Shown here: one piece after another, positions 11,992 through 19,948 of the stretch | Numbering within the stretch: position 1 is the first letter of the stretch | How the letters are laid out: each line of letters begins with the position of its first letter | Assembly (NCBI GenBank): GCA_036350935.1 | Contig: JAZBOA010000095.1 | Coordinates: 1 to 49,393 of the forward strand | Direction of reading: 5' to 3' | Length of the DNA: 49,393 nucleotides | From: Anderseniella sp. | GTDB lineage: Bacteria; Pseudomonadota; Alphaproteobacteria; Rhizobiales; Aestuariivirgaceae | Program-made: the position numbers and the translations under genes | The notes under the pieces: generated by a model | Told to the model about the DNA's origin: nothing | The model's database searches: none | Seen by the model: only the letters and a program-made list of their open reading frames with translations

Positions 11992-12008
11992 AGCGGTTTA
12001 AACCGCTT
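11991..12008. promoter_or_regulatory. Perfect 18-bp palindrome AAGCGGTTTAAACCGCTT
   Basis: Seen directly at the LOG stop codon, upstream of the sigma-54 activator; role unknown. Confidence 0.4.
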
Positions 12009-12127
12009 GTTCACCATATTCAGGCATCCTCACTGGCAAGATTTCGTCAGTGAGTGCGGGCCGCGCCATCCTCCACGGAGCAATCATGGCGCGCCACCCG
12101 CCGGTTTAGTAATCAGGTTCGTTCCGC

Positions 12128-13513
12128 ATGTCCGGCAATGCTACCAGTTCAAGAGTGGTCCTCATCGTGGAGGACCGGCCGTCCGTCGCCAGCGTCTATC
12201 GCAACCATCTCGAAGCCAACGGCTTTGCGTGCGAACTGGCCTGCGACCACAAGGCCGCCCGCGCGCAGGCAGCCCGCAGCGCCCCGTACGCCGTCCTTCT
12301 GTCGCTGGAATTGCCGGGGGCTCAAGGAGCTGACCTGATCGGTCCGCTGTCGGCTGCAGCACCATCTGCCGCCATCATCGTCATTGCCGCCAATGCCTCG
12401 ATCAACGCAGCTGTGGACGCCGTCCGCGCAGGGGCCTGGGACTATCTTGTCTCGCCGGTATCCCGCAACCGTCTGCTGACCACGCTGGCCAATGCCGGTG
12501 ACCGCAGCAGCTGTGCCGTGCAGCCGGCATCGCAGCCGCGCTCAGCCGTTACAGCATCGCCGCAAGCCGGCCGGATGATCGGCTCCTCTTCAGTCATGGC
12601 CGAAACCCGCCGCCAGATCGCCGCCATCGCGGCATCCAGCGCGCCCGCCTTCATCACCGGCGAAAGCGGCACTGGCAAGGAACTTTGCGCCGAGGCCATC
12701 CACGCCGGATCGCCACGCACCGGCAAACCGTTCGTGGCGCTCAATTGCGGCGCCATACCGCGCGACCTGATGGAATCGGAAATCTTCGGCCACCTGAAGG
12801 GCGCCTTTACCGGCGCCATTTCGGACCGTGAAGGGGCAGCGGCGGCAGCCGACGGCGGCACCCTGTTCCTCGACGAGATTTGCGAGATGGACCTCGCCCT
12901 GCAAACCAAGCTGCTGCGCTTCCTGCAGACCGGCACCATCCAGCCGGTCGGCTCGGCGCACACCCGCAAGGTCGACATCCGCGTTGTCTGCGCCACCAAC
13001 CGGGACCCGCACGAGGAAGTCGCCCAGGGCCGCTTCCGCGAAGACCTGTTCTTCCGGCTGCACGTGCTGCCGGTCCGTCTCGCCCCCTTGCGAGAGCGCG
13101 GCAACGACGTCATCGAACTGGCGGATACCTTCCTGCGCCACTATGCGCACGACGAAAACAAGCGCTTCACCAGCTTTTGTGACACGGCACTCGACCTGCT
13201 GAAGGCGCACCGCTGGCCGGGCAACGTTCGAGAACTGCAGAACGTCATCCGGCAGGCCATCGTGCTCAACGACGGTGAATTGCTGGAGGCAGACATGCTG
13301 CCCGCCCATGTGGGCAACGGCCATCAGGCAGCCCTGGCGAGCCCGGCCACACCGGCGCTGGACGGCAGGCTCCTTTGGCAAATCGAGCGTGATGTGATCG
13401 AGGCGGCGATAGCCAGTTTTGCCGGGTCGATCCCCAAGGCCGCACAGGCGCTGGGCATCAGCCCTTCGACCATCTACCGCAAGCGCGAAAGCTGGCAGGC
13501 GATACCGGCCTGA
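12128..13513 (+). CDS. Sigma-54 enhancer-binding protein, LuxO/NtrC-like, with degenerate receiver domain
   Basis: GESGTGKE, GAFTGA, LFLDEICEM, RFREDLFFRL, WPGNVRELQN and a C-terminal Fis-type HTH (ALGISPSTIYRK). Confidence 0.92.
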   Translation: MSGNATSSRVVLIVEDRPSVASVYRNHLEANGFACELACDHKAARAQAARSAPYAVLLSLELPGAQGADLIGPLSAAAPSAAIIVIAANASINAAVDAVRAGAWDYLVSPVSRNRLLTTLANAGDRSSCAVQPASQPRSAVTASPQAGRMIGSSSVMAETRRQIAAIAASSAPAFITGESGTGKELCAEAIHAGSPRTGKPFVALNCGAIPRDLMESEIFGHLKGAFTGAISDREGAAAAADGGTLFLDEICEMDLALQTKLLRFLQTGTIQPVGSAHTRKVDIRVVCATNRDPHEEVAQGRFREDLFFRLHVLPVRLAPLRERGNDVIELADTFLRHYAHDENKRFTSFCDTALDLLKAHRWPGNVRELQNVIRQAIVLNDGELLEADMLPAHVGNGHQAALASPATPALDGRLLWQIERDVIEAAIASFAGSIPKAAQALGISPSTIYRKRESWQAIPA

Positions 13514-13523
13514 CCCGGCCGCT

Positions 13524-13952
13524 TCAGCCTGCGAAGATCAGGTCGTCGTCATCGCTGACGATGTCGCCGAAATGCACCGCCACCAGCGCAACATCCGAGT
13601 CCCGACCGGCTTTCAGCCCGTGCACGACGCCGGCGGGAATGTACAGGCTGTCATCGGGGCTGGCGATCAGCACATCGTCACCCAGCATCACCTCGGCCTC
13701 GCCTGAAACCACCGTCCAGTGCTCGGAGCGGTGTCTGTGATAATGGGCCGGCATCGACTCGCCGGCCTTCACCTCGATCCGTTCAACCCGGTGCCCGCCT
13801 CCGCCGGACAGCACCGAGACCGATCCCCAGCCATGCTGCAGGCAAGGTTTCTCCGCCCCGTTGCGCGGCACCGGATGATAGTCGGCAAGTCTTGCTGAAT
13901 GTGACCTGGGCGCAAGGCGCGCAAGCGGAACCACCGGCACGATGCCAGCCAT
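13524..13952 (-). CDS. Stand-alone cupin resembling the C-terminal phosphomannose-isomerase domain of ManC
   Basis: HGWG...RIEVKAG...HYHRHRSEHWTVVSG...YIPAGVVH; GAGGGAG RBS before ATG 13952. Confidence 0.75.
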   Translation of the reverse strand: MAGIVPVVPLARLAPRSHSARLADYHPVPRNGAEKPCLQHGWGSVSVLSGGGGHRVERIEVKAGESMPAHYHRHRSEHWTVVSGEAEVMLGDDVLIASPDDSLYIPAGVVHGLKAGRDSDVALVAVHFGDIVSDDDDLIFAG

Positions 13953-14062: not shown

Positions 14063-14078
14063 AGCAAGCGGTGGGCCA
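14063..14078 (-). promoter_or_regulatory. Sigma-54 -24/-12 promoter
   Basis: Minus strand reads TGGCCCACCGCTTGCT, i.e. GG-N10-GC within TGGC...TTGCT. Confidence 0.75.
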
Positions 14079-14153: not shown

Positions 14154-14190
14154 CTTTGCAGAATGCAAAGCCTGCATCGCAGAATGCAAA
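14154..14190. promoter_or_regulatory. Tandem enhancer (UAS) boxes of the TTGCA-N3-TGCAA type
   Basis: CTTTGCAGAATGCAAAG (14154-14170) and TCGCAGAATGCAAA (14177-14190), 21 bp apart, about 110-130 bp upstream of the predicted sigma-54 start. Confidence 0.72.
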
Positions 14191-14261: not shown

Positions 14262-14420
14262 CTACTTCAGGTCTTCGCTGTCTTCCATCACCTTGAGGAG
14301 GTGCATGACCTCCTTCAGTTCCGGCGAGATGTCCTGATGACGGCGGGTGCGATCCGGAGAGACAGGCTGTTGGCCGTTGCCGTCGGAAACTTCATCCGCT
14401 ATGCGGTTTACGCTGTACAT
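14262..14420 (-). CDS. Small hypothetical protein (52 aa)
   Basis: Below the ORF-track cutoff. MYSVNRIADEVSDGNGQQPVSPDRTRRHQDISPELKEVMHLLKVMEDSEDLK; GC3-rich codons in its 3' half, purine-rich RBS, fills an intergenic gap. Confidence 0.55.
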   Translation of the reverse strand: MYSVNRIADEVSDGNGQQPVSPDRTRRHQDISPELKEVMHLLKVMEDSEDLK

Positions 14421-14574
14421 TGTCCCAGCCCTTCAACTCTGGTCGGAGATGCAGTCTATGACTGTACCTCCTAATGAATCTCTAACCATGCCGGGTAAAG
14501 ATTGCCGCCCGGTCACTGGCTGAACCGTCTAGGCTTGCTTCCGGGCGGAATTTGGACAGGGAGACGACAAAAGT

Positions 14575-17731: not shown

Positions 17732-18670
17732 TCAGGCTTTGCCGTTGCGCGCTTCCTTCAGATAGTAATTCGCCTTGCGGCCATAGATCAGCCCGCGCAG
17801 CAGCCTGCGAACCCGCTCGGACTTGCGCAGCGGGTCGATCGCCGCGCGCATCGCGTCATGGCCGAATACCTTCATCGCGTCGGCAACCGGCCGCACGCCA
17901 GGCCCCGCCTGCGGCAGGCCGAAGCGGCGCAAGGTGCCGTTCAACAGCCGGATCTTGTTGAGTCTCAGCACCTCGGGCGTTTTCCAGGTCATCGCCATGG
18001 AAATGCAGTAGTCATCGCCGGTGCGCACCCAGTGCGGCTGGGTGTATGGAATGTGCACGCCATCACCGGCATTGAGCGCGAACACCTGGGCGCGCGCCTC
18101 GAAACCTGGTTCGTAATGCTGGTTGCGGTGCTTGGAAGGCGCGATCTCGCGGGCCTCTTCAGATACCAGCGCGCCATCGCCATTGTCGAACAGGTGCACG
18201 AACTTCTCGCCACGGATGTTCACCAGCACGTTCTCTTCCATGTCGATGTGAAACGGCGTGGTTGACCTGGCCGACGACACGAAGATGAAACCCTGCAGGT
18301 CGGAAAAGCCGTCACGCGGCAACCCGGAAGCTTCTGACAGATCGCCGGCGAACTGCTCCAGCAACGCCCGGTATGCCGGATCATGCTCGACGTTCTTGAT
18401 CACCAGCCAGGCATGCGCGGTTTCAATCTGCCGGATCACCTGGTCCGCATCCATCTCAAGGCCCGGCACGTCTTCCGGCCTGACGCCTGGCGGCACGTTG
18501 CCCGAATTGTACTCGATACGGTCACGCGGCATCGACTTGGCAAGGTCAACCAGCCGGTCAAGCTGGAACAGCGGGTTGCTGGCGAACCCATGACGGATCT
18601 GGAACGGCGCCTTGTAGAGTTTCTGCCGGTCGGCCGGGGCGAGGGAGAGGGGCTGGGCGGTCATCATCAT
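17732..18670 (-). CDS. JmjC/cupin-like Fe(II)/2-oxoglutarate oxygenase
   Basis: TTPFHIDMEEN...IRGEK...GDGVHIP...PHWV gives an HxD...H triad; ATGA overlap with the upstream GNAT. Confidence 0.75.
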   Translation of the reverse strand: MMMTAQPLSLAPADRQKLYKAPFQIRHGFASNPLFQLDRLVDLAKSMPRDRIEYNSGNVPPGVRPEDVPGLEMDADQVIRQIETAHAWLVIKNVEHDPAYRALLEQFAGDLSEASGLPRDGFSDLQGFIFVSSARSTTPFHIDMEENVLVNIRGEKFVHLFDNGDGALVSEEAREIAPSKHRNQHYEPGFEARAQVFALNAGDGVHIPYTQPHWVRTGDDYCISMAMTWKTPEVLRLNKIRLLNGTLRRFGLPQAGPGVRPVADAMKVFGHDAMRAAIDPLRKSERVRRLLRGLIYGRKANYYLKEARNGKA

Positions 18671-19815
18671 TTTCCCTTCTGGAGGAGGTGACGGAGGGCC
18701 TTGAGACGGCGGAAGGCGGAACGGCGGACCCGCTCGAGGCCGTGAATGATCCCGAACATCGCACCAGGCTTGCACGGATTGCCGATCAGCACGTCGCGTA
18801 CTTCCAGCCGGTCTTTCCACAGGTGATCGATCATCGGGTGACCGGGCGCCGCGCAGCTGTCGGCAAACATGAGCTGATCGTCGTCGAACAGCGTGCGCGT
18901 CGCTTCCAGGATGAGAAGCTGGCCAGGCGAGAACCGGTTCAGGCTCTCATCGTGCGCCATCTTGACGATGGAGGCGGTCGCGCCGTTGCGCACCCCGAAC
19001 ATCATCGCCACCGGCTTGCCGTCAAGTGTCATCGACCACGTCATCAACTTGCCTGCCGCGTCGAGCTCGGCGAGGCTGGAGCGCACAAATCGTGTCAACG
19101 CACCGGACTGGCCAATGGCGGTGCCCGCCTCGCCTTTCCAGCCTGCCTGTTCCAGCGCGATGAAGCTGTCGATCCATTGTGAAAGCCCCGCCTCACCGGC
19201 AGCCCTGACATCGACACCGAGCTCCCCGGGTTCCGCCAGCCGGCTCTTCAGGCGGCGCAGTTCCTTGCGCCGCTTGCGCGCAAACGTCTCCTCGAACCAG
19301 GCCTCGAAATCACCGTTGCAACGCAGGGCAGCGCGCTTGCGGTCGTCCATGAAGCGGATCGGCGCACCGATCGCCGCGCAGGCATCGACCAGCACGCTCG
19401 ACACGACATGATGACCGGTAACGTGCGACAGTAGCAGCGCAGTGGCGCCGGTCTTTTCGAAAATGGCCTCGATCAGTCCGGCGCAGTTGCCGGCCGGATC
19501 ATCGGTGTTTATCAGCGGCGTGCCGGAGATCGGAAAATCACCGAACCAGCTTTCTGCATGGGCGAGAGGCAGGCCCCATCGCCAGCGCTTGCGTTCCACC
19601 ACGGCATATCCGCCGGACTGCCCGTTCGCCGCCAGCGTTTGCACGGCCTCAACCTGTCCCGGCCTGGCGCACGTAGCCAGCATCGGCCCGATCCAGTCCG
19701 GGCTCAGCGTGAAGTTCGGCTCCAGCGCATTCGCCGAAAGCCAGCCGCTGCCACCGGACACGCTTTCAGGCCTTGCAGGCTGAGCATTGGCAAACTTCGA
19801 GACAGGCATCTGCAT
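18667..19815 (-). CDS. GNAT-family protein of the CelD/BcsL (Acetyltransf_6) type
   Basis: RKRRKELRRLKSRL, LEQAGWKG, FSPGQLL, DSCAAPGHPMIDHLW. Confidence 0.8.
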   Translation of the reverse strand: MQMPVSKFANAQPARPESVSGGSGWLSANALEPNFTLSPDWIGPMLATCARPGQVEAVQTLAANGQSGGYAVVERKRWRWGLPLAHAESWFGDFPISGTPLINTDDPAGNCAGLIEAIFEKTGATALLLSHVTGHHVVSSVLVDACAAIGAPIRFMDDRKRAALRCNGDFEAWFEETFARKRRKELRRLKSRLAEPGELGVDVRAAGEAGLSQWIDSFIALEQAGWKGEAGTAIGQSGALTRFVRSSLAELDAAGKLMTWSMTLDGKPVAMMFGVRNGATASIVKMAHDESLNRFSPGQLLILEATRTLFDDDQLMFADSCAAPGHPMIDHLWKDRLEVRDVLIGNPCKPGAMFGIIHGLERVRRSAFRRLKALRHLLQKGK

Positions 19816-19948
19816 GGCCGCATACCGGTTCCGTAAAGGGACACTGATACGCGTCTACAGCAATCCACATACCAGATGCTTTACCTGATCAGGACCACCT
19901 GCTGCCGTCGTTAACGAAACCTTTACACCACGCCACCGGACGGCGGCG

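Follow-up and report, generated by a model that had tools for sequence, protein, structure and literature searches.

The window, that is, the whole 49,393-nucleotide stretch of contig JAZBOA010000095.1 from Anderseniella sp. that was analyzed, encodes at 12128..13513 (+) a LuxO-like sigma54 enhancer-binding protein of 461 aa, recognized as REC-AAA+-HTH by profile matches and alignment, whose receiver is a pseudo-receiver. The reading we prefer, with a probability of roughly 0.55, is that of a phosphorylation-independent LuxO-type activator with an output that follows its own expression level. From the comparisons described below we infer DNA binding, promoter activation, transcription of a small RNA, control by CtrA, and an incomplete block of the ATPase by the receiver: the protein would bind tandem TTGCA-N3-TGCAA boxes about 110–140 bp upstream of two sigma54 promoters, its intact ATPase would open both (those of the adjacent cupin gene and of an unlinked RNA of ~85 nt), the receiver would no longer fully hold the ATPase back, and the output would be set by the amount of protein made from a predicted CtrA-dependent promoter. 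The predicted regulon and the RNA family are the strongest result, and the switching of the activator is the weakest. The informative part, i.e., the predicted enhancer boxes, sigma54 promoters, small RNA, and CtrA-type promoter, was missing from the original prediction for this locus, which had dealt with the receiver.

An aspartate-less receiver on a LuxO-like activator

Profile search placed Response_reg at residues 11–120, Sigma54_activat at 150–316, and HTH_8 at 416–454, corresponding to a receiver at 12158..12487 (+), an AAA+ sigma54-interaction domain at 12575..13075 (+) with all catalytic motifs and GAFTGA intact, and a Fis-type HTH at 13373..13489 (+) with the helix SPSTIYRK, the only one of its type among the bEBPs recovered from the genome. 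The receiver fold is well supported (PF00072, 63 bits vs. a cut-off of 30; (beta-alpha)5 in the structural model). Vibrio LuxO (5EP0) is both the closest solved structure and the best sequence match, and the alignment to it bears out the three receiver substitutions originally proposed: the phospho-Asp is Ser59 (LLSLELP vs. LLDLRLP; 12302-12304), the switch Thr is Ala87 (IVIAAN vs. VIMTAH; 12386-12388), and the conserved Lys is Ser109 (DYLVSP vs. DFLIKP; 12452-12454), while the acidic pair E15-D16 is retained. Having a receiver fold that lacks both the Asp and the Thr, the domain falls under the definition of an aspartate-less or pseudo-receiver given in PMC12632262. Walker A, GAFTGA, Walker B, sensor I, the R-finger region, sensor II, and the HTH all align as intact, again as predicted, and by layout the protein is a group I sigma54 bEBP. 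The reported absence of a kinase or Hpt gene nearby also held, the 25 ORFs of the window that were scanned (802-29817) containing neither domain. The linker glycine is indeed kept (G152, equivalent to LuxO G141), but it is weak evidence for a LuxO affiliation and was rejected as a hallmark because three of four other aligned bEBPs of the same genome share it; the Arg equivalent to G329 was likewise rejected as an activating change, being non-diagnostic. Of the residues that bear on a docking of receiver and linker in the ATP site, as in Vibrio LuxO, G152, R324, and Q371 are retained, and the AlphaFold model (pTM 0.54, rmsd 18.8 Å to 5EP0) places the receiver differently from 5EP0. The best NCBIfam model was LuxO NF041946, with a score of 510.5 bits, below the cut-off of 800, as were those of relatives with intact receivers (543 and 557).

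Conservation was followed in 24 genomes assigned to Anderseniella by their source labels, which are kin and not independent samples. The orthologue was recovered in 21 of them, and the three genomes where it was not found (G005, G008, and G020) have completeness values of 82, 86, and 62%; contamination of the source assembly is 4.9%. S59 and A87 occur in 21/21 genome orthologues and in 39/39 close database proteins, with Ser59 using all four TCN codons and Ala87 three of the four GCN codons (17 loci). Position 109 is K in 17 of the 21 orthologues, T in two, R in one, and S in one, so that of the proposed three-residue loss the Asp and Thr changes are lineage-wide and the Lys change is not: K was lost in a subclade that includes the source genome, and K109S was found among the 21 in the source genome only. 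All frames are open and dN/dS is far below 1 in every domain at a protein identity of 64–87% across the genus. In pairwise estimates within clades of nine and three loci, dN/dS was 0.05–0.07 for the beta4-alpha5 part of the receiver, 0.04–0.05 for the ATPase core, and 0.32–0.36 for receiver alpha2-alpha3, and the conservation score of the beta4-alpha5 face equals that of the ATPase (0.91 vs. 0.91); the side of the receiver that serves phosphorylation thus appears relaxed and its output side does not. Recent decay of a disused regulator would be in keeping with the uniqueness of K109S, but it conflicts with the open frames, the low dN/dS in each domain, and boxes and promoters that are conserved at this level of divergence. 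It is refuted as an explanation by the invariance of S59 and A87 in the face of synonymous codon variation and by the lack of D or T at these positions in all 21 orthologues, and we give it a negligible probability. Judged by these orthologues, the receiver loss is old and selected, and that of the Lys is recent and incidental.

In a quick tree of the ATPase and HTH region the genus forms a single clade (SH-aLRT 100), and the family relatives G024, G307, and G352 from sister genera, which keep D, T, and K, adjoin it with a support of 88–92. A REC-Hpt gene lies directly upstream of luxO in these three genomes as well as in G393. No REC-Hpt orthologue was found in the 24 genus genomes at an E-value of 1e-25, the one match being a hybrid kinase; this, together with the invariant S59 and A87 and their synonymous codon variation, supports the phosphorylation independence originally suggested, which came with constitutive activity and ligand or partner control as alternatives. 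Elsewhere in the source genome there are seven Hpt-domain matches, and we noted several small stand-alone Hpt proteins (L058, L054, L055/L056), two of them near-duplicates. Truncated or stop-interrupted REC-Hpt remnants are present at L217 (G330) and L240 (G101), two genomes where no LuxO-like protein was found. In G352 and G307, degenerate LuxO-type boxes stand before the REC-Hpt/luxO operon (L211, L212), which suggests possible autoregulation in these genomes.

A CtrA-type box, TAAA-N7-TTCACCAT, lies in the activator's promoter region at 11999..12017 (+), with a motif match at 21/21 orthologue loci in the genus, in some of them with a spacer of 6 nt. It is a predicted site with one mismatch per half relative to the TTAA-N7-TTAA / TTAACCAT-type consensus near -35, which was taken from PMC6180460. 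Both ctrA and rpoN are encoded in the source genome, where this motif class is enriched at a spacing of 7 (69 vs. 13–39) and where such boxes precede sciP (over the cut-off) and ccrM-like and gcrA-like genes (under the cut-off). In G307 REC-Hpt is preceded by a matching box, and in G024 and G352 by looser ones that were identified by eye. As the box stands before REC-Hpt in the relatives and before the activator in the genus, we conclude that the donor was probably lost from between promoter and luxO; the ancestor would have had the order promoter, REC-Hpt, and luxO with D/T/K, and the loss would have left the promoter directly before luxO, with the receiver remodeled and not discarded. A further CtrA-type box occurs near position 19925 (-) of the window, upstream of a GNAT/cupin gene pair (17732-19815).

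Two predicted targets: a cupin gene and a small RNA

The first predicted target, convergent with the activator gene, encodes a stand-alone cupin of 142 aa similar to the C-terminal part of mannose-6-phosphate isomerase (13524..13952 (-), PF01050) and is syntenic in all 17 genus loci that reach that far and in the sister genus G024. It is faced by a predicted sigma54 -24/-12 promoter at 14063..14078 (-), a pattern that fits G024 and 17 of the 18 genus sequences, and the 18th sequence, outside the full pattern, still has GG-N10-GC. A perfect LuxO-type enhancer box, TTGCA-N3-TGCAA, lies at 14156..14168 in the window and is present in 16/17 genus loci and in G024, and 21 bp away there is a second box with a single mismatch (14177..14189); the pattern is the same as in the V. 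cholerae LuxO ChIP sites at qrr1-4 (compared with PMC10328515). Within ManC, it is the isomerase end that the cupin resembles, a ManC-like transferase gene is located near luxO in G352 and G307, and the box of G352 points at glycosyltransferase/PilZ-HlyD genes; such neighbors hint at a control of sugar precursors or polysaccharides. In family f47, a box and a sigma54 site were also seen before protein genes near an intact LuxO-like gene (L129, L131, L128).

A conserved small ORF of 52 aa with an SPEL(K/R)E motif (14262..14420 (-), 18/18 genus sequences) had no Pfam or Atlas match. Its weak homologues in G024, G307, and G101 occur beside intact LuxO and, in G101, where no LuxO-like protein was found, which weakens its candidacy as a dedicated partner of the activator; it is probably a neighbor and not part of the system. 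Upstream of it there is a TTAG-N7-TTAG box (14471-14485), and ORF and box recur together in G024, G307, and G101, hence it could possibly be a CtrA-timed small protein. The start region of the ORF (14410-14430, -) shares an 11-base word, in the same sense, with the loop of the RNA described next (G000:C85:20750-20770, -); exact matches occur at only these two places in the source genome, and the sharing may reflect chance or mimicry.

The second predicted target, unlinked to the activator, emerged from a genome scan for box and promoter, from conservation, and from stem covariation: at G000:C85:20690-20774 (-), a second box and promoter are followed by ~85 non-coding bases that end in a hairpin and a U-run, and the conservation begins at the predicted start site. 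A pattern search across the order matched 31/401 genomes (reversed control: 0), and of the 30 loci inspected, 16 have a homologous RNA, that of the source genome among them, and in most of these the RNA follows the same amidotransferase gene; the remaining loci stood before proteins or were chance-like. In stem 1, 98.7% of the cells are paired and 19 are compensatory, a level reached by 0/500 shuffles (a test inflated by relatedness), while slid controls reached at most 48%. A promoter-free RNA model found the RNA in 43/80 genomes at an E-value of 0.05, with one copy in each of the 24 genus genomes and occurrences in about ten other families of the order; weaker matches in G050, G062, G352, G051, and G245 were dismissed as chance-like. 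All 24 genus RNAs have a sigma54 site 10–13 nt upstream and a box at 146–157 nt, and site and box also accompany the RNA in G024, G307, G393, G027, G041, G046, G066, and G068. The exact RNA core was found at 19 loci in GTDB (2 by chance), and no plasmid match was obtained. Rfam 15 gave no credible match for the source RNA or for 16 other loci, so that by this test the RNA is not Qrr. A search for duplexes with 4705 gene starts, themselves called crudely, returned no convincing target of the RNA. In four metatranscriptome runs from one study, shares were 0.06–0.07, for contigs only and with scattered cover that included intergenic DNA. Two CATMTTG-like motifs ~31 bp apart (L184), conserved across the order between boxes and sigma54 site, may be IHF- or NrdR-like. 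Outside the genus, the second RNA stem often carries a GACCCC loop (L117, L132, L135-L146), a possible second pairing site that is absent within the genus.

Specificity was assessed with a box and promoter matrix built from relatives, for which only two sites in the source genome scored above background, those of the cupin and the RNA (56.2 and 54.4; next score 24.2, reversed control maximum 33.2). Taken by itself, the perfect box shows no enrichment there (6 vs. 1–8 at other spacings), and a third combination at C629, before a DAHP synthase gene, was rejected as it was not among the top 12 matrix matches. A phosphorylatable LuxO-like paralogue with an HTH similar to that of the activator is encoded in only 6/24 genus genomes (G001, G003, G006, G010, G021, and G020), which makes the pseudo-receiver protein the only candidate found in the rest; in these six, the paralogue is located behind a hybrid kinase-Hpt gene and near polysaccharide genes (L061-L065, L050). 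All 15 genomes outside the genus that were found by pattern encode a LuxO-like protein, and each has at least one such protein without a canonical receiver residue, although the register is uncertain in divergent domains. Five RNA-bearing genomes had no LuxO-like protein that could be found, and of these four lack the sigma54 site and four the box, the exceptions being G070, which keeps a sigma54 site, and G056, which keeps a box. The three genus genomes without a recovered orthologue (G005, G008, and G020, of the completeness given above) nevertheless have boxes and promoter. In G393 the LuxO-like protein has no receiver, and promoter and boxes are kept at its RNA; that of G027 lacks the receiver as well and its GAFTGA is degenerate.

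How the activator could be switched

In Vibrio LuxO the receiver inhibits, a receiver-less form is constitutively active, and the D60A protein is locked off (PMC4878744). Since that non-phosphorylatable form is off, the changes of D to S and T to A should by default silence the activator. The locus could accordingly encode a locked-off, DNA-bound repressor or damper, with the two promoters activated by another enhancer-binding protein; the intact paralogue with its similar HTH in six genus genomes would be a candidate, and in Vibrio fischeri two activators can share one sRNA promoter (PMC10162802). We regard this as improbable: GAFTGA and the catalytic motifs are invariant under a dN/dS of 0.04–0.05, the boxes lie at least 78 bp upstream of -24 and are thus too distant to act by simple occlusion, and no intact paralogue was found in most genus genomes, including G015 and G023, which are 99% complete (10–30 contigs). 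Because promoters, boxes, and ATPase motifs persist in genomes without an intact paralogue, the activator is most likely active at some time. Activity by phosphorylation at Ser59 or a nearby acidic residue, through a kinase encoded elsewhere in the genome, would fit with the kept E15-D16, the invariant S59, an acidic residue at +2, the K in 17/21 orthologues, and the seven Hpt-domain matches, but position 87 is Ala everywhere, K is gone in the subclade of the source genome, no cognate REC-Hpt turned up in the 24 genus genomes, and the alpha2-alpha3 surface has drifted, which leaves this route very improbable.

A stronger contender, still on the unlikely side, leaves the targets unchanged but has the pseudo-receiver hold the ATPase back, as the LuxO receiver does, until a ligand, a partner protein, or a change in redox state relieves the inhibition. 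Its strength lies in an output face that is under strong purifying selection and carries residues specific to the lineage: D97, S112, N114, Q163, and A166 are fixed on alpha4-beta5-alpha5 and the first ATPase helix, and H27 (47/47) and C35 (44/47) add to these; in other atypical regulators a Cys at the equivalent DD+19 position acts as a redox switch (PMC12632262). Against this gating, Cys35 is present in intact paralogues too, the ATPase-side residues of LuxO interface II (333, 337) vary freely, also in intact relatives, there is no partner candidate, as the small ORF occurs as well where no LuxO-like protein was found, and the receiver-less relative G393 retains the regulon. An activity that needs no trigger and follows the expression level is favored by the fact that the donor disappeared and the input promoter did not, and by G393, which keeps the regulon without a receiver. 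This expression-level reading has to contend with a beta4-alpha5 face (the inhibitory interface of LuxO) that is conserved beyond the need of a dispensable lid, and its CtrA dosing with the few LuxO-like promoters outside this family that showed CtrA boxes.

Comparison with known systems

Tentatively, and at slightly less than even odds, we propose that many families of the order may run an undescribed LuxO-sigma54-sRNA circuit with a Vibrio-like layout and an unrelated RNA family, that phospho-control would have been shed repeatedly (through pseudo-receivers or no receiver), and that the genus would have rewired it as a cell-cycle cascade from CtrA over the LuxO-like activator to the sRNA. 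No published description of the circuit was found in a search that left out subscription journals and supplements, and alphaproteobacterial sRNA catalogs could list the RNA. LuxO has been described as apparently absent outside vibrios (PMC4878744). The likeness to the Vibrio LuxU-LuxO-sigma54-Qrr system (5EP0; PMC4878744, PMC10328515) consists in the same box pattern, a predicted sigma54-dependent small RNA output, and, in the sister genera, an Hpt donor beside luxO. Unlike Vibrio LuxO, the activator scores below the family cut-off and has neither the phospho-Asp, the Thr, nor a donor gene, and unlike in the Vibrio circuit the RNA has no Rfam match, a cupin is the second predicted target, and the promoter is CtrA-type. 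Judged by sequence features, then, the layout is one that resembles LuxO-Qrr, and the activator is not a LuxO family member by score, receiver, or donor.

With the AprX-RpoN3-XrpA system of Cereibacter sphaeroides (PMC11999139) it shares an alphaproteobacterial REC-AAA-HTH activator tied to the CtrA network; compared by description, however, the receiver of AprX is canonical and AprX drives an XRE repressor of ctrA, whereas the activator here is predicted to act downstream of CtrA with an RNA as its output, and the AprX paper makes no mention of LuxO. FleQ-type bEBPs (PMC12632262) likewise combine an atypical receiver with an AAA+ sigma54 activator and are controlled without Asp phosphorylation, but FleQ belongs to another clade (structural-alignment identity of 34% to FleQ vs. 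48% to LuxO), and no FleN-like gene was found among the scanned neighbors of the activator. According to the same 2025 review, pseudo-receivers make up ~6% of bacterial receivers and their switching is a mystery; being so common, the loss of receiver residues is ordinary on its own. What the present case adds is an RNA family that Rfam 15 does not contain and for which an activator and a sigma factor can be predicted, and a before-and-after series running from an intact receiver with donor (sister genera) to a pseudo-receiver without donor (the genus) and to no receiver (G393). Such a series, with two defined predicted promoters as read-outs, makes pseudo-receiver switching directly testable. 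Here, unlike for other aspartate-less receivers, it is possible to trace the ancestor with its intact receiver, the donor that was lost, and the regulon that is predicted.
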